From: Candidatus Woesearchaeota archaeon | GTDB lineage: Archaea; Nanobdellota; Nanobdellia; SCGC-AAA011-G17; GW2011-AR18 | Direction: 5' to 3' | DNA length: 64,000 nt | Assembly: GCA_018302765.1 (NCBI GenBank) | Contig: JAGVZG010000004.1 | Location: 16,878-80,877, forward strand | In this document: in pieces, positions 4,913-45,866 of the stretch | Layout of the letters: each line of letters begins with the position of its first letter | Position numbering within the stretch: position 1 is the stretch's first letter | Program-made: the position numbers and the translations under genes | Notes under the pieces: generated by a model | Told to the model about the DNA's origin: nothing | The model's input: only the letters and a program-made list of their open reading frames with translations | Database searches by the model: none

Positions 4913-6571
4913 ATGAAAAAACTTATTTTGGTATTATTATTTATGTTAGTTCTATCTTTCAATGTTTATGCTGCAGGTAACTTAAATATGAATATTGTTT
5001 CTGTAAGTTCCTCAGTTTCACCTGGTGGTAATATTAGATTAGACGTTAATCTAACAAATATAGGAGTCAATCCTTTAGATCCTATAAAAGTTACAACAAC
5101 AGATCCTAGAGATTCTGCTGGTAATGTTTTAGATGTAAATAACGTTGTTTTAGAAAATGCAAATTCAGGACTTGGTCCATTAGGAGCAATGGGCTCCAGG
5201 GTAGTAAGTTTATCAATACAATTACCACAAGGACAACCAGGCACTTACACAGCAACCCTAACTGTAGACTTTGATGGAGTAAGCACAGATTCTAAAACTT
5301 ATAGCTTTAATTTGCTATCACCTCTTAGCGTAAAGTTTAACAACGCTGAACTAAACTCATTATCTGTTAACTTAGAAAGTGGCGAGGATGAAAATGAATT
5401 AAGTTTATTGCTAACAAATATAGGTAACGTTCCATTAACTAATTTAAGAGCACTTGCAATATTTCCTGATTTAGAAGACAATGATGACGACACTGTAGAT
5501 ATATCAAATCCAACACCTATTAGTTCTTTATTACCTGGACAATCTGCAACTATAAGATTTTTATTTGATGTTGATTCTGGTTTTGATGAATCTGTACTAG
5601 ATGGTGTTATAAAGATTGAATCTACTGAATTCAGAGCAAAGGAATATAACCTTAAGTTGAACGTAAAACCTCTATCTTGCCAACTAAATTCAAAAAGTGA
5701 CAAGATAGGATTGAATATAAACAAGCCAGACGACAATGATGATTTTGAATCAGGCGACGTAGTTAATGTTGATTTAGAAGTTGAAAACAAGGATAATGAT
5801 GATATGGATGTAAAGATTGAAGCATTGTTATACAATACTGACAAAGATAAAAAATTAGACAGTTATGTTATTTCAAAGAACATTAATGATGATGACACTG
5901 AGGTATTTAAGTTTAAATTAAATTTTGATGACGTTAAAGATGACGATGTCAAATTATATGTAAAAGCATATAATGACGATGATGATTTAATGTGCAAAAG
6001 CGATGATGTTAATTTAGACGTTAGTGTTCCAGATCATAAAGTTACTATAAATAATCCAACATTATCTCCTGCAATTGTTGCATGTGGCGACAGAGTTGTT
6101 GGAAATGCATTGCTGAAGAACGTTGGTGATAATGATGAAAATGTTGTTTTAGACGTATTTAATACCCAACTTGGATTAAGTCTGAATTCTCAATCCTTTG
6201 AACTAAAAGAAGATGAAGATGAAAATACAAGAGCCTTAGATTTTGCATTTAATACTCCAGAAAATGCAAAAGATGGTTCATATCCAGTAACCTTAAGAGT
6301 TAGATATGGTGGACAAGAAACAAATTCACAAGTGACATTAGTTTTACAGGGTTGTTCTGCTGCAACACAAGTACAGAAAAGCACTAGTGTACAAAGTTCA
6401 ACAGATGATAATTTAGTATTTACAGGCTCTGGAGTTTATACAGAAAAAGGACTTTTTGACAAATTCAATAAGTCAGAATTTGGAGTTCCTACTTCAGTAT
6501 GGCTACTAGTTGATTTATTGTTAGTTGTATTGATTATAGGCTGCCTTGTCTGGTTATTCAGAACCAGATAG
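4913..6571 (+). CDS. Putative S-layer/surface protein with Ig-like (CARDB-like) domains
   Basis: Signal peptide, repeated L.N.G.. beta-rich domains, Asp-rich segments, C-terminal TM helix plus basic tail; GGAGG ribosome-binding site upstream. Confidence 0.7.
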   Translation: MKKLILVLLFMLVLSFNVYAAGNLNMNIVSVSSSVSPGGNIRLDVNLTNIGVNPLDPIKVTTTDPRDSAGNVLDVNNVVLENANSGLGPLGAMGSRVVSLSIQLPQGQPGTYTATLTVDFDGVSTDSKTYSFNLLSPLSVKFNNAELNSLSVNLESGEDENELSLLLTNIGNVPLTNLRALAIFPDLEDNDDDTVDISNPTPISSLLPGQSATIRFLFDVDSGFDESVLDGVIKIESTEFRAKEYNLKLNVKPLSCQLNSKSDKIGLNINKPDDNDDFESGDVVNVDLEVENKDNDDMDVKIEALLYNTDKDKKLDSYVISKNINDDDTEVFKFKLNFDDVKDDDVKLYVKAYNDDDDLMCKSDDVNLDVSVPDHKVTINNPTLSPAIVACGDRVVGNALLKNVGDNDENVVLDVFNTQLGLSLNSQSFELKEDEDENTRALDFAFNTPENAKDGSYPVTLRVRYGGQETNSQVTLVLQGCSAATQVQKSTSVQSSTDDNLVFTGSGVYTEKGLFDKFNKSEFGVPTSVWLLVDLLLVVLIIGCLVWLFRTR

Positions 6572-6941: not shown

Positions 6942-7422
6942 ATGAAAAAAGAAAAAGCGGTTTTTGCTGCAGGTTGTTTCTGGGGCGTACAAGAGGCATT
7001 TGACAAAGTTGATTGTGTATTAAATACTGTTGTTAGGTATACTGGCGGACTTAAAGAGTATAAAAATCCTAGTTATGAACTAGTCTGCTCTGGAAAAACA
7101 AAACATGCAGAAGCAATACAAATTGAATTTGATCCTGAAAAATTTAGTTATGAAAAGTTGTTGGGAATTTTTTGGAATGGTCATAATCCAACCACATTAA
7201 ACAGACAAGGCCTTGACATAGGAAGTCAATACAGGTCTGCTATTTTTTACCTAAATGAGAAACAGAAAAAATTAGCTTTGAATTCTAAAGAAGAATATGA
7301 GGAAAAAATTAGGTAAGAAAATTGTCACTGAAGTTGTTAGGGCTAAAGAATTTTACCCTGCTGAAGAATATCATCAAAAATATTATAAAAAACACTCTAT
7401 ACTTTGTCATTTAAGAATATGA
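6942..7422 (+). pseudogene. msrA: Peptide-methionine (S)-S-oxide reductase MsrA, frameshifted
   Basis: [19 protein letters not shown]; removing one A from the A6 run at 7303-7308 restores [25 protein letters not shown], ending at 7422 and overlapping the msrB ATG. Confidence 0.85.
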
Positions 7423-8934: not shown

Positions 8935-9075
8935 AGCGCGGGGAGGGAAATTCGTAAACTTTTTTGTTAAGGAAGTTTAGTTCGAACCCCCAATCTGTTG
9001 CTGTCTTCTTTATTATAGCTATTAGTTCATAATAGCAAACTGCAGGCAACTGCCTTGCCGTTGGGCCACCCGCGC
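8935..9075 (-). tRNA. tRNA-Cys(GCA) with two introns: 37/38 (9003-9039, 37 nt) and 59/60 (8949-8980, 32 nt)
   Basis: Spliced 72-nt cloverleaf GCGCGGG TG GCCC AACGGCA AGGC A GTTGC CTGCAGA GCAAC AGATT GGGGG TTCGAAT CCCTC CCCGCGC T; U73; the T-loop intron has a perfect BHB (TTCG/CGAA helix). Confidence 0.93.
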
Positions 9076-9944: not shown

Positions 9945-10832
9945 TTGTTCCAGCTAACTATGTCAAGAGTAAAGAAAGTAGGATTGCACTTCGATATGGA
10001 AATGCTTAGAGTAGCATCTGATATTGAAACGAGTGCAAAAACTTTAGAAGATTTGTGTACGGAATTAAAAAAACAAACTCAACCGCTTAAAAGAGCTAGA
10101 AAAACTCTTGTGGATGCATTCAATGTATTTGATGATATTGATTACAGTTTAAGTGACAGTTTAGGCAACTGTATGTTTGGGAATATTATAATTGAAAATT
10201 ATGATTTAGTTAAAAAAACAGTATTGAAAGGCATAAATAATTATTTAGGGGTAATTGATGCTTTTAATAGTCCACCTTTTAATGGAAAAATTGAACATGT
10301 AAACTTTGACAACGAGCATAGCGACGCTAGAGATATGCGTACTGCTTTAAAAGCACATGACTTACTTGGCATTGTTTTAGGAACTTTCATAGAAACAAAA
10401 TTAAATGTTCCACAATTAGTTGGTTTGCTGTATAATGAAATTGCTGCTTATAATAAATATCTAAGAGACCGTTTTGTTAAATCTAATGAAACTCCAAAAT
10501 TGCAAACAGCAAGGATTTTAGTTGTTGGTGAAGAAGAACAAAGGGCAAAATATACTAAGATTAAATTAATGGATGGCAATCCTGTACTTACAGAAGTTAT
10601 GTTAAGTATAATGGAAAAATTGCCTGAATACAAAGAACGTACAGTTAGAGAAAAAGGAAGAAATAAAAAACTGAGAGAGGTAAGTAATTTTGGTGTTAGT
10701 GACTCAGTAGATCATATTATTGCTTTCTCTAGTCCGAAAATATTAGAATATATAAAAGATCCGAAAAAATTCTTTGCAGAAGTAGCTTCTGGCCTAAGAA
10801 TTTACTATGACGTTGTTGTGCCAATACTATAG
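9945..10832 (+). CDS. Hypothetical protein, possibly the N-terminal part of the downstream AAA ATPase
   Basis: 295-aa ORF, 26 nt upstream of the ATPase ORF. Confidence 0.55.
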   Translation: MFQLTMSRVKKVGLHFDMEMLRVASDIETSAKTLEDLCTELKKQTQPLKRARKTLVDAFNVFDDIDYSLSDSLGNCMFGNIIIENYDLVKKTVLKGINNYLGVIDAFNSPPFNGKIEHVNFDNEHSDARDMRTALKAHDLLGIVLGTFIETKLNVPQLVGLLYNEIAAYNKYLRDRFVKSNETPKLQTARILVVGEEEQRAKYTKIKLMDGNPVLTEVMLSIMEKLPEYKERTVREKGRNKKLREVSNFGVSDSVDHIIAFSSPKILEYIKDPKKFFAEVASGLRIYYDVVVPIL

Positions 10833-10858: not shown

Positions 10859-12316
10859 ATGTCTTTGTTAGAAATGGATAACAAAATGGAAGAAGCTTTA
10901 ACTCATGATAACAAAATTGTTTTTAGAAATCTTAAAAGGATTGAAGATACTGACTTTGATAGTATTATTCAGAATCCTGATGATATTTTTCCTGAAAATA
11001 GGCGTGAAAGAGAATTCTTTGAATTAAGAAGTGAATTGCTTAGAACTTTATACGAAACATTAAACAGGCTAACAAAAATAGAAGGAGACAATGCTATAGA
11101 AGAAAAAGAAAGAATTGCTAAAGAAACAGTTCTTAGAGGAGTAGAGTTAAGAGCAGACATTCATGAAGTGCTTACGCCTAGTGCAACAAGGAAATTAAGA
11201 CAAGACAGAAGAGATGAAAATGAGTATTATGAAGGCGTTCAAGGCGCTATTGGTATGTTTGGTTTTGAAAGAAAACCTACGCCCCATGTCAAATTAGAAG
11301 AAGTTATTGGCAGTAGTTTTGATAGAGCTAAGAATCATTTAATGGAAATCGTAGAAACTGGTGTTTATAGCCGTATTATGACTCTAAGCGCTCCTGGTCG
11401 CAAGGTGAGAAGTAATATTCTTTTAATAGGTCCTTATGGTTGCGGTAAAACAGAACTTGCTAGGGCAATTTGCGCAGATAAAAGAGTCATAGGAGCTAGT
11501 GTAAGTGTAGCAAGCACATTAACAGCTTACTTACATGAATCTGTAAACAATGTAAAAAGAATCTACGACGCTGCTAAGAAATTATATGTAGAAGGAAGAG
11601 AAGATAAACCTGTAGTTTTAGTTCTTGATGAATTTGATGGCTGGTTTGCTAGAGGAGAAAGTGGATCTTTAGTAACAACAGATATGCATCAAATAGAAAA
11701 CATTTTACTTGAAGTTTTGGACGGCATGGGTGACTATAATGGAATTATTACTATGGCAATGACAAATAAGCCAACATTAATTACTGGTGGAATATTAAGA
11801 AGATTCAGATATGTTGATGTTGTTGGTCAATTAATTACTCAAGAAAGAGCTGATTTACTTAGAATGTATTTAGAAAAAAGCTTGCCAGTTGATAGCGAAG
11901 TAAAAGAAAGTGATTATAAGATATGGGCTGAAAAATTAGAATATGCACCTGGTGATGTAGTAAGAAAGGTTGTTGATGAAATTCATTTTAAGTTATTACC
12001 TGAATATTTGAAGACTATGCCTAGAGAAGCTAAATTAGTTGAAAGGGTTTTGGACAAAAGAGAAAAAAGAGCTGGAGTTTTAAGTGATAAGGATATTGCT
12101 TACGTTAAAAATAAATTGGCTGACTATAGATCTATTAGTGCATTAGAAATAAGCAGAGCTGTTGATGATTTGTTACTGCAACCACCAATAAGAAAACAGA
12201 TTGAAACTGCAAAAGTTGTTTACAGAGAAGCTGGAGAAATACTTGAGGAAATTAGTGGCGCTGGAACAAATCCCTTAGGAATAAAGAGAGAGAAAATATT
12301 TTTAATTTTAGATTAA
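10859..12316 (+). CDS. AAA+ ATPase
   Basis: Walker A GPYGCGKT, Walker B VLVLDEFD, sensor-1 MTNKP, LRRF arginine-finger region. Confidence 0.88.
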   Translation: MSLLEMDNKMEEALTHDNKIVFRNLKRIEDTDFDSIIQNPDDIFPENRREREFFELRSELLRTLYETLNRLTKIEGDNAIEEKERIAKETVLRGVELRADIHEVLTPSATRKLRQDRRDENEYYEGVQGAIGMFGFERKPTPHVKLEEVIGSSFDRAKNHLMEIVETGVYSRIMTLSAPGRKVRSNILLIGPYGCGKTELARAICADKRVIGASVSVASTLTAYLHESVNNVKRIYDAAKKLYVEGREDKPVVLVLDEFDGWFARGESGSLVTTDMHQIENILLEVLDGMGDYNGIITMAMTNKPTLITGGILRRFRYVDVVGQLITQERADLLRMYLEKSLPVDSEVKESDYKIWAEKLEYAPGDVVRKVVDEIHFKLLPEYLKTMPREAKLVERVLDKREKRAGVLSDKDIAYVKNKLADYRSISALEISRAVDDLLLQPPIRKQIETAKVVYREAGEILEEISGAGTNPLGIKREKIFLILD

Positions 12317-12399
12317 TAAACTACAATTTTAAATGCCAAACAAATTTAGTTTTATTACATATCAAATGTTAACTTATTGTACCTAAATACAAAAATTAA

Positions 12400-12566
12400 T
12401 GGCGGGCCCGACGAGAATTTCATGAACGTTTCTTTCAAATAAAAGTTCTTTTGAACTCGCGACCCTCTGCTAGCTTCCATATAGCTAGAAGGCAGATGCG
12501 CTATTAGCCCACCTTCTTTCGTGAACATTTCTTCCTAAGAAAGGTTCCAGGCTGCGCTACGGGCCC
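12400..12566 (-). tRNA. tRNA-Arg(TCT) with three introns: 19/20 (12505-12546, 42 nt), 37/38 (12472-12485, 14 nt) and 59/60 (12417-12449, 33 nt); CCA encoded
   Basis: Spliced 78 nt GGGCCCG TA GCGC AGCCTGGATA GCGC A TCTGC CTTCTAA GCAGA GGGTC GCGAG TTCAAAT CTCGT CGGGCCC G CCA; BHB helices GCCT/GGGC, CTTC/GAAG, TTCA/TGAA. Confidence 0.93.
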
Positions 12567-12590: not shown

Positions 12591-12598
12591 TATTTAAA
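12591..12598 (-). promoter_or_regulatory. TATA box of tRNA-Arg
   Basis: TTTAAATA at -32..-25 from mature +1. Confidence 0.6.
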
Positions 12599-12644
12599 GT
12601 TTACTAACAACAATATTTATATTTAACTTAAATTTCTTTAATAG

Positions 12645-13799
12645 ATGCTTAAAACTCCAAAAATATTTATGCCATTTAAAGGCATTTATTACCTTACATT
12701 TATTGTTCTTATAAGTTCTATAGCGACCTCAATGCTAATGCCTATATTTCCTTTATACATAAAAAGTTTTGTCTCAAGCAATGCATTGGTTGGATATGTA
12801 AGTGCATTTGTAGGTGTTTTACTAGTAGTTTACAGTTTTTTGATTCCAAAGTTGTTTATAAAAATTAAAAAATTAACTTTAGTCAAAGTTGGATTTTTAG
12901 GCCTAGCTATCACTCAAATAATATTTACAGTTTTAGTTAATATAAAACAATTTCTTATATTAGAAATTATAAGAACATTCTTTTTACTATCTACGTATCT
13001 TGCAATTGGCTTATTTGTCAGAGAATATAGTTCCAGATCTACAATGGGCAAAGCTGAAGGACAATATTTTACAATTTCTAATTTTGGCTGGTTAATAGGC
13101 CCTTTGTTAGGCGGTTTATTAGCAACTGCATATTCATTTGATATTGTGTTTATATTTTCTGCTGTTCCACAGTTACTTTTAGCTATAATTTTATTTTTTA
13201 TTCCATTAAAAGAAGGGCCAACACATGACAATCATAAAATTAATTTATTTGATTATTTAAAACATAAAGATCTATTAGTATTATATTTGCTATCATTCGG
13301 TTTATTCGCGTGGTGGAATATTATTTATACATATCTCCCTCTTTATGCAAATGCTTCAGGGTTTTCTCCAAATACAATAGGCTTTGCGATGTTTTTATCA
13401 GCTATTCCATTAATATTACTTGAGATTCCAATTGGAAAACTAGCAGATGGCCATGGATTTAGAAAATATATATTTACTGGCTTTATAATAATTGCAGTAA
13501 TAACTCTATTCAGCAATTTAATAAGTCCTTTCTATAAAATTATGTTAATCAGCCTTGCAACTATTGGTGCAGCATTTATAGAACCTTTATTGGAAACTTA
13601 TTTCTTCAAGCACTTAAGAAGCAAAGAAGATGAACATAAATTTTATCCAATATACAAAAGTTCTTCACATTTAAGTAATATAATAGCACCATTAATTTAT
13701 TCTACAATACTTATTTATTTTGATTTTAAAGGATTGTTTATATTTGTCCCTATATTTATGTTATTTTTTGCATTTATAGCTTTAAAATTAAAAAGATGA
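12645..13799 (+). CDS. MFS transporter
   Basis: About 12 TM segments, GKLADGHG motif A, GPLLGGLL. Confidence 0.88.
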   Translation: MLKTPKIFMPFKGIYYLTFIVLISSIATSMLMPIFPLYIKSFVSSNALVGYVSAFVGVLLVVYSFLIPKLFIKIKKLTLVKVGFLGLAITQIIFTVLVNIKQFLILEIIRTFFLLSTYLAIGLFVREYSSRSTMGKAEGQYFTISNFGWLIGPLLGGLLATAYSFDIVFIFSAVPQLLLAIILFFIPLKEGPTHDNHKINLFDYLKHKDLLVLYLLSFGLFAWWNIIYTYLPLYANASGFSPNTIGFAMFLSAIPLILLEIPIGKLADGHGFRKYIFTGFIIIAVITLFSNLISPFYKIMLISLATIGAAFIEPLLETYFFKHLRSKEDEHKFYPIYKSSSHLSNIIAPLIYSTILIYFDFKGLFIFVPIFMLFFAFIALKLKR

Positions 13800-29351: not shown

Positions 29352-29588
29352 TTATTCTTCTCCAAATACACATTTTATCTTGTAAACTTTTCTTATTCTA
29401 TGCAATGGAATTTCTACTTCTTTATTATCTAATTCTAAAACTATTGAGAATTTATTTAGTTCTTTTATGTCAGTAAATTTTATTTCCTGCAATTCTTCTT
29501 TAAACCTGTCTTTGTAATAAATTATAAATTTTTCTTTGTCTTTTTCTTTCCATTTAATCTTATTTAATAATTCAAATATTGCTTGCAT
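29352..29588 (-). CDS. DUF504/MJ1316-like RNA repair domain protein
   Basis: LLNKIKW...IIYYKDR...EIPLHRIRKVY. Confidence 0.8.
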   Translation of the reverse strand: MQAIFELLNKIKWKEKDKEKFIIYYKDRFKEELQEIKFTDIKELNKFSIVLELDNKEVEIPLHRIRKVYKIKCVFGEE

Positions 29589-43803: not shown

Positions 43804-43915
43804 TGCCCCGCGCGAGATTTGAACTCGCGTCAGAGCCTTTCTCCTTTTGCTTAAGCTTTTTCTAAAGGCTTATTTCGAGAGGGCTCTATCCTTGACCGGG
43901 CTAGACGAGCGGGGC
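43804..43915 (-). tRNA. tRNA-Glu(CTC) with one 37/38 intron (43839-43875, 37 nt)
   Basis: Spliced 75 nt GCCCCGC TC GTCT AGCCCGGTCAA GGAT A GAGCC CTCTCGA GGCTC TGAC GCGAG TTCAAAT CTCGC GCGGGGC A; BHB central helix CTCT/GGAG. Confidence 0.92.
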
Positions 43916-45761: not shown

Positions 45762-45866
45762 CGGGCCCGACGGGATTCGAACCCGCGGCCATCTGATTAA
45801 GAGTCAGATGCTTTCGGCAATTTTGAATTTTATTCTGAAATTACTACCAAGCTGAGCTACGGGCCC
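45762..45866 (-). tRNA. tRNA-Lys(CTT) with one D-arm intron at about 22/23 (45813-45843, 31 nt)
   Basis: Spliced 74 nt GGGCCCG TA GCTC AGCTTGGTA GAGC A TCTGA CTCTTAA TCAGA TGGCC GCGGG TTCGAAT CCCGT CGGGCCC G; helix TGGT/GCCG, inner stem AATTT/AAATT. Confidence 0.92.

Follow-up and report, generated by a model that had tools for sequence, protein, structure and literature searches.

Transfer RNA genes that are interrupted by three introns have been described in the Thermoproteales, e.g. in Pyrobaculum calidifontis (Sugahara 2007/2008, cited in PMC4033280; PMC8450103), for which 71 introns in 46 tRNA genes have been counted (PMC8450103). Three introns is the stated published maximum in archaeal tRNA genes (PMC3239211, PMC4033280, PMC8450103), as the initial annotation of the locus studied here had noted. 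According to a citing paper, similar introns at differing positions in the Thermoproteales have been read as intron transposition (Fujishima 2010, cited in PMC4033280). Among the DPANN archaea, disrupted tRNAs and an ε2 splicing endonuclease EndA have been reported for ARMAN-2 (Ca. Micrarchaeum; PMC3239211, PMC3488258), and the EndA of this organism cleaves a 59/60 intron in vitro (PMC3239211). Multiple DPANN lineages, with Woese-/Pacearchaeota genomes among those analysed, were described to combine an α4 EndA carrying an L3 loop with increased tRNA disruption (PMC5829648). In the same study, Kaneta et al. 2018 reported more tRNA disruption, multiple introns included, for Woesearchaeota RBG_13_36_6 and Pacearchaeota RBG_13_33_26 and predicted further unidentified disrupted tRNA genes (PMC5829648).

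Here, a tRNA-Arg(TCT) gene with three introns was analysed in a 64-kb stretch of DNA, referred to as the window, with a GC content of about 29%. The coordinates given for the gene beforehand, 12400-12566, were found to be exact; the strand, which had not been stated, is the minus strand. The host is a DPANN archaeon of the Nanoarchaeota in the GTDB sense and of Woese-/Pacearchaeota type, i.e. an ultra-small, mesophilic and uncultivated organism from Rifle aquifer groundwater. The archaeal markers of the window are the ribosomal proteins L7Ae, S28e and L24e, an IF-2-family translation GTPase, FtsZ, GatD and an ATP-dependent DNA ligase, and the named relatives of its AAA ATPase and LeuRS belong to Woese-, Pace-, Nano- and Aenigmarchaeota (50-74% identity). 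As 9 independent assemblies (ENA, Logan, JGI), made from different Rifle aquifer samples, agree in all 167 nt of the Arg locus, an assembly artefact can be dismissed. With this gene, the three-intron maximum applies to a mesophilic, ultra-small archaeon of groundwater as well as to thermophilic Crenarchaeota.

The gene shares with those of the Thermoproteales, as far as the cited sources describe them, the presence of up to three bulge-helix-bulge (BHB) introns per gene at canonical as well as non-canonical sites, and the fact that standard finders miss them. The likeness of introns 1 and 3 described below moreover follows the same pattern as the intron transposition reported in that order (Fujishima 2010, cited in PMC4033280). 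Whereas the Thermoproteales are thermophilic crenarchaeotes with an (αβ)2 endonuclease, the present host is a mesophilic DPANN archaeon with 29% GC, and the apparently paralogous introns are located in the D-loop and the T-loop of a single gene. Common features with ARMAN-2 are a DPANN host, 59/60 T-loop introns including one in tRNA-Cys(GCA), and multi-intron tRNAs; the ARMAN-2 genes described carry one or two introns, however, and a three-intron case is not mentioned in the available text of these reports (PMC3239211, PMC3488258). The genomes RBG_13_36_6 and RBG_13_33_26 belong to the same broad lineage and, judging from the RBG names, probably to the same Rifle site, but the available main text of Kaneta et al. 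2018 describes neither a particular three-intron gene nor an intron family, and gives no analysis of junctions (PMC5829648). The arrangement of introns in D-loop, anticodon loop and T-loop also occurs in the nuclear tRNA-Ile(UAU) of Cyanidioschyzon merolae (PMC9602550, PMC3728597). This red alga is a eukaryote, its endonuclease is of the eukaryotic type, and its gene has no sequence relationship to the one studied here. A non-canonical D-loop intron together with a canonical intron is known from pre-tRNA-Glu(UUC) of Methanopyrus kandleri (PMC5829648), which differs in having two introns, a relaxed HBh' motif in the D-loop and a euryarchaeote as host. Since the three-intron maximum, the 59/60 site and tRNA disruption in Woese-/Pacearchaeota have all been published, the Arg gene is of a known kind, and its modest novelty lies in the lineage, in the paralogy of introns within one gene and in the intron density of the region.

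The precursor of 167 nt extends on the minus strand from its 5′-end at 12566 to the 3′ CCA end at 12400 (5′ GGGCCCGUAGCGCAGCCUGG ... 3′ CGGGCCCGCCA), and the exons and introns given in the following are located on that strand. Exon 1 (12547-12566, 20 nt) comprises the 5′ acceptor strand, U8, A9, the 5′ D-stem and A14-G19 of the D-loop, and does not differ from the corresponding sequence of the intron-less orthologue in the related Nanoarchaeota genome L016. Intron 1 (12505-12546, 42 nt) interrupts the D-loop at 19/20, with G19 before and A20 after it. Exon 2 (12486-12504, 19 nt), which matches the orthologues, contains A20, U20a, A21, the 3′ D-stem, A26 and the 5′ anticodon stem, followed by the loop part C32-A37 with the anticodon UCU. 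After intron 2 (12472-12485, 14 nt) at the canonical 37/38 site, exon 3 (12450-12471, 22 nt) provides A38, the 3′ anticodon stem, the variable loop, the 5′ T-stem and U54-A59. Intron 3 (12417-12449, 33 nt) is located in the T-loop at 59/60 and exon 4 (12400-12416, 17 nt) consists of U60, the 3′ T-stem, the 3′ acceptor strand, G73 and the encoded CCA. Removal of the three introns leads to a 78-nt product with encoded 3′ CCA, which was called as tRNA-Arg(tct) by ARAGORN. Sizes and sites of the introns as well as the spliced product thus agree with those proposed initially. The site designations are Sprinzl numbers and not linear positions; the two numberings diverge because the D-loop carries 17a. 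A linear reading of 19/37/59 displaces intron 2 by 2 nt and generates a spurious tRNA-Gly(TCC), which was ruled out because its junctions lie outside the BHB bulges and the orthologues disagree with it.

In the unspliced state the gene escapes detection: ARAGORN reported no tRNA in the window, the Arg locus being missed with and without the intron option, and Rfam gave no match at the locus either at the gathering threshold or at E ≤ 10. Two other types of interrupted gene were considered and rejected. A split or permuted tRNA gene was ruled out by the four exons, which are colinear on one strand within 167 nt, and group I/II self-splicing introns (core larger than about 200 nt) by the intron lengths of 14-42 nt and the lack of any Rfam intron match. 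By reading of the sequence, neither a C box (TGATGA) nor a D box (CTGA) was found in introns 1 and 3, and a C/D-box RNA role is therefore unlikely.

For the comparison with orthologous DPANN tRNA-Arg genes, which had been suggested in the initial annotation, two collection scans were performed with an anticodon-arm pattern consisting of GCGCATCTGCCTTCTA, a gap and AGCAGAGGGTC. Among the 16 loci retrieved, 14 are tRNA-Arg(TCT) orthologue loci of Nanoarchaeota/Woesearchaeota-type genomes and metagenomes, while a near-duplicate (L029) and a match in Myxococcota (L019) were set aside. The latter (contig JAHDBA010000019.1, about 5200-5320) is a short repeat that contains the tRNA-Arg anticodon-arm sequence without tRNA context and is not a tRNA. 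Viral contigs scanned with exon 3 yielded no match, and the synteny route was not productive: 57% identity was the most that any relative of the adjoining AAA ATPase reached, and the surroundings of the gene are not conserved.

Five of the orthologues are intron-less and each was called tRNA-Arg(tct) by ARAGORN. These genes read GGGCC(C/U)GUAGCGCAGCCUGGAUAGCGCAUCUGCCUUCUAAGCAGAGGGUC..UUCAAAU.., exactly as the predicted spliced product, which is identical to the L016 gene at 73 of 75 positions; the two differing positions pair with each other in the T-stem and are compensated, A:U for G:C. The homology to the intron-less orthologues fixes the junctions without any folding rule, to within 1 nt at the D-loop, and the junctions proposed beforehand are supported by it. 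When 11 distinct mature sequences were aligned, 99.1% of the cloverleaf cells were paired and 6 pairs showed two-sided changes, values that were reached by 0 of 500 shuffles. Columns 24-50, which include most of exon 2, correspond to the search pattern and are invariant by construction, so that the informative covariation lies in the acceptor and T stems; in the T-stem, exon 3 covaries with exon 4 across the orthologues.

The orthologues also allow the introns to be followed individually. A D-loop intron at 19/20 is present in eight lineages (window, L017/L031, L027, L022, L023, L025, i.e. GW2011_AR18, L024 and L030). In the alignment of the junction segments of these lineages, 90.8% of the cells were paired compared to 19-44% with the partner strand slid, and 7 pairs of the D-loop BHB had changed on both sides, e.g. 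the exon-intron pairing GCCU:GGGC to GUCU:GGAU. Canonical introns occur in five lineages; the short ones of L017/L031 and L030 are homologous to intron 2 of the window, and the helix of intron 2 is kept among these homologues with little variation. T-loop introns at 59/60 were detected in four other genes (L024 Arg, L027 Cys, AR18 Cys and window Cys), and exon base 57 covaries with the T-loop intron, A:U in Arg and G:C in Cys. All three introns together were found only in the window among the orthologues recovered. L028/L029 carry a tRNA-Arg with a 12-nt D-loop intron at 20a/21 and a tRNA-Cys with an insertion near 45/46, after the anticodon stem, and thus intron positions shift within the clade.

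At the junctions fixed by homology, all three introns possess a BHB motif with a 4/4 central helix and 3-nt bulges that are cut 2|1, in accordance with the geometry originally described. In intron 1 (GCCU[GG|A]ACCUUU...AAGGU GGGC[UA|A]) the central helix is accompanied by a 6/6 inner helix, while the exon-side helix is reduced to the single pair A14:U20a beside the D-stem. Based on sequence identity alone, a slide of this junction by 1 nt leaves the product unchanged, but the slid junction forms only 1 of 4 pairs, and A20 opens exon 2 under the BHB cut rule, as had been stated before. In intron 2 (CUUC[UA|G]C..G GAAG[CU|A]) the outer helix is the 5/5 anticodon stem and the inner helix consists of 1 bp. 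Intron 3 (UUCA[AA|A]GAAC...GUUC-A-UGAA[AU|U]) is flanked by the 5/5 T-stem as outer helix, and an additional unpaired A displaces its inner helix GAAC:GUUC. The motifs of introns 1 and 3 are mildly relaxed and might be poor substrates for a strict α4 or α'2 enzyme. A lone 4-bp helix occurs frequently by chance in the AT-rich DNA of the window, so that the BHB geometry is convincing only in combination with homology.

The unconstrained fold of the precursor has a minimum free energy of -57.8 kcal/mol (z = -2.86) and contains the BHBs of the D-loop and the T-loop, with pair probabilities in the ensemble of 0.94-0.96 and 0.75-0.88, respectively. The anticodon BHB is not part of this fold. Its ensemble probability is 0.17, owing to competition from a shifted register, GCCUUCU:AGAGGGU, and a fold in which all three BHBs are enforced is 7.4 kcal/mol less favourable. 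The low value, together with the slightly relaxed motif of intron 3 and the finding that a shift of intron 2 by 2 nt still results in a cloverleaf called Gly(tcc) by ARAGORN, would fit the use of other junctions, i.e. a cut of intron 2 located 2 nt upstream that generates tRNA-Gly(UCC), or a two-intron gene with a retained T-loop insert. The competing register is also seen in the mature fold and its sequence is common to the intron-less orthologues, so it is weak evidence against the anticodon BHB. The use of such junctions is regarded as scarcely credible, given that the anticodon loop of the intron-less orthologues is CUUCUAA and their T-loop sequence UUCAAAU, as predicted by the BHBs, that the shifted cut falls outside the BHB bulge, that G73 and A20 suit arginine identity (PMC9976931), and that BHB introns at 59/60 recur in the four other genes named above with exon-intron covariation.

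With respect to the amino acid accepted, tRNA-Arg identity is based on C35 and U36, A20 in the D-loop and an A/G73 discriminator, with no experimental definition for Archaea (PMC9976931). The mature sequence contains U34 C35 U36, A20 and G73, in agreement with tRNA-Arg(UCU). A20 is found without exception in the 14 orthologue loci, from which the 11 distinct sequences were aligned. Its role as an established arginine identity element, as initially claimed, is confirmed by experiment in bacteria, plants and mammals, whereas for Archaea it is a statistical prediction only (PMC9976931). The encoded CCA, present in 2 of the 14 orthologues and in none of the 3 other tRNA genes of the window, does not characterise the clade. 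Arginine codons in the window are dominated by AGA (74%) and AGG (17.5%), together 91%, and tRNA-Arg(UCU) is hence the main arginine tRNA of the organism.

Upstream of the gene, a BRE/TATA-like element, AAACTTTAAATA, is located at 12591-12602 on the minus strand, corresponding to about -36 to -25 from the tRNA 5′-end. An A-rich stretch plus TTTAWAWA / TTTAAATA-type element is found at similar distance 5′ of the Glu and Lys tRNA genes of the window, and alignment of the Arg(TCT) orthologues revealed an upstream A-rich and TTTAWAWA-like element at comparable spacing as well; on these grounds we infer that AAACTTTAAATA acts as promoter. Downstream, the T-rich tract TTAATTTTTGTA (12388-12399, minus strand) abuts the CCA. 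As T-runs also follow immediately 3′ of the gene in many Arg(TCT) orthologues, it likely represents an archaeal oligo-T terminator.

The locus could be taken for a decaying pseudogene, in which a tRNA-Arg was disabled by three insertions while a working tRNA-Arg(UCU) is encoded elsewhere in the genome. The analysis covers the window and 10 kb beyond its start, which leaves room for an intron-less copy elsewhere, standard tRNA finders do not call the locus, and the split AAA ATPase and MsrA genes in the neighbourhood hint at some gene decay. The exons, on the other hand, show no uncompensated change relative to the intron-less orthologues, every insertion sits exactly in a 3-4-3 BHB, the D-loop insertion has been kept with covariation in all eight lineages, and the promoter-like element is still present. 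Moreover, DPANN genomes are small, and the codons AGA and AGG make up nearly all arginine codons of the window. Decay is considered very improbable on this basis, and the comparative evidence argues with high confidence for a functional, single-transcript tRNA-Arg(UCU) gene with three protein-spliced BHB introns.

Expression of such a functional gene could be envisaged as follows, the steps of EndA and RtcB being drawn from established archaeal tRNA splicing (PMC4090602, PMC5829648). Transcription would start from the BRE/TATA-like element about 30 nt upstream and stop at the T-run past the CCA. In the resulting 167-nt precursor, G15-U17a, C32-C35 and U54-A57 would each pair with the 3′ part of their own intron and thereby form three non-overlapping bulge-helix-bulge motifs. 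The splicing endonuclease EndA would then make six cuts, each between the second and the third base of a bulge. The four resulting exons, of 20, 19, 22 and 17 nt, would remain joined through the cloverleaf stems, because every stem pairs two different exons, and would be ligated by RtcB, with RNase P and 3′ trimming completing the ends. As U54-A57 are paired with the intron and G18 and G19 are placed in a bulge, the D/T elbow (G18 and G19 with U55 and C56) would be blocked, and its formation as well as elbow-dependent modification would have to wait until introns 1 and 3 are removed.

Comparison of the introns with each other revealed that introns 1 and 3 are identical at 24 of 30 positions without gaps (AACCUUUCUUAGGAAGAAAUGUUCACGAAA against AACUUUUAUUUGAAAGAAACGUUCAUGAAA), with the kin block at 12448-12418 in intron 3 corresponding to 12547-12517 in intron 1 plus G19. 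The score of 30 compares to 12.6 ± 2.5 for shuffles (z about 7-9) and was reached by 3 of 20,000 dinucleotide shuffles and by 0 of 19,936 real segments of the window. The D-loop intron of L030 resembles both intron 1 (score 32) and intron 3 (score 29), each with 0 of 3000 shuffles as high. For intron 1 and the T-loop intron of the tRNA-Cys gene in the window, 3 of 3000 shuffles scored as high, and the match of intron 3 to the same Cys intron is not significant alone. No further occurrence of the motif shared by introns 1 and 3 was found in the window. To judge from these similarities, intron 3 looks like a paralogous copy of intron 1.

The likeness of the two introns could also be due to chance or to convergence of AT-rich hairpins, each intron having arisen independently. 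Both are short, AT-rich and constrained as hairpins, a few of the dinucleotide shuffles did attain the observed score, the kin block is 2 nt out of step relative to the 5′ splice site, and intron 3 lacks a significant match of its own to the Cys T-loop intron. An independent origin is nevertheless rated as unlikely in view of the ungapped identity and its z value, the complete lack of equally scoring segments in the window, the extension of the shared block over loop regions free of BHB constraint, the separate match of intron 3 to the L030 D-loop intron, and the restriction of the motif to these two introns within the window. Copying between introns is somewhat favoured instead: BHB introns in this DPANN lineage may be mobile, a family with the core AAGAAAYGTTYAYGAA having been copied between D-loop and T-loop of the same gene, with the Cys T-loop intron as kin. 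The D-loop intron appears to be old in the clade, some lineages have the canonical intron in common, and the T-loop intron would be a lineage-specific gain from the family of the D-loop intron, which also suggests the direction of copying. If true, the copying of AAGAAAYGTTYAYGAA introns would be the first evidence of tRNA-intron transposition outside the Thermoproteales within the literature searched. Since orthologues with 0, 1, 2 and 3 introns exist in the clade, they form a natural series for the dating and the mechanism of intron gain; this series, with its fixed sites and covariation, and the intron paralogy provide a compact testable system for archaeal tRNA intron gain.

Three further tRNA genes of the window, all on the minus strand, are interrupted. 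The tRNA-Cys(GCA) gene (8935-9075, 141 nt) was detected by an acceptor-stem scan, having been missed by ARAGORN and Rfam. It contains a canonical 37-nt intron (9039-9003) and a strict BHB intron of 32 nt at 59/60 (8980-8949), and its spliced product of 72 nt was called tRNA-Cys(gca); the T-loop intron is kin to intron 1 of the Arg gene and to the Cys T-loop intron of GW2011_AR18 (L025 5696-5832). The tRNA-Lys(CTT) gene (45762-45866) has one non-canonical D-arm intron of 31 nt at 22/23 (45843-45813) with the BHB UGGU[AG|U]…GCCG[AA|A]; in Rfam it appears only as a partial tRNA, and ARAGORN with intron option mislabels it as Phe(aaa). The tRNA-Glu(CTC) gene (43804-43915), which has no encoded CCA, carries a canonical 37-nt intron (43875-43839). 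In total, 7 introns are distributed over 4 tRNA genes (Arg, Cys, Lys and Glu) in the 64-kb window, so that the tRNA intron density of the organism may rival the highest known, that of P. calidifontis. For genome annotation this means that the main arginine tRNA and at least the Cys tRNA escape both ARAGORN and Rfam. DPANN genomes in which tRNAs seem to be lacking may simply contain genes with many interruptions, a suspicion already voiced by Kaneta et al. 2018 (PMC5829648).

The endonuclease of the host must cope with D-loop and T-loop sites. The α4 type with L3 loop would be expected for such lineages (PMC5829648), as opposed to the ε2 type of ARMAN-2. No Pfam match for EndA (tRNA_int_endo) or RtcB was obtained in the 64-kb window or in the 10 kb beyond its start.

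Several minor observations were made on the surroundings of the tRNA genes. In the relatives L016, L017, L018, L020, L021, L027, L028 and L031, the Arg(TCT) gene is usually located near Cys(GCA) and in the same orientation, with a spacing of mostly a few to about 50 nt and of about 0.8 kb in L018. Order and strand are kept in the window, but the two genes are separated by 3.3 kb, in which three plus-strand genes are located. Two plus-strand ORFs, 9945-10832 and 10859-12316, of 295 and 485 aa, make up the AAA ATPase upstream of the tRNA; its relatives (≤57% identity) have a single ORF of about 790 aa, and the split is present in every assembly inspected. The gene for MsrA (PMSR; about 6942-7422, plus strand) is likewise called as two overlapping pieces of 124 and 41 aa, pointing to a frameshift or to a gene that has been split. 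A CRISPR-repeat-like match at 12923-12948 was sub-threshold, is located inside an MFS gene and was treated as chance. Finally, a small minus-strand ORF of 78 aa at about 29352-29588 (L032 4147-4383) encodes an MJ1316 domain (PF04457), a domain family described to recognise RNA cyclic-phosphate ends, which could bear on the 2′,3′-cyclic phosphate ends of tRNA splicing.
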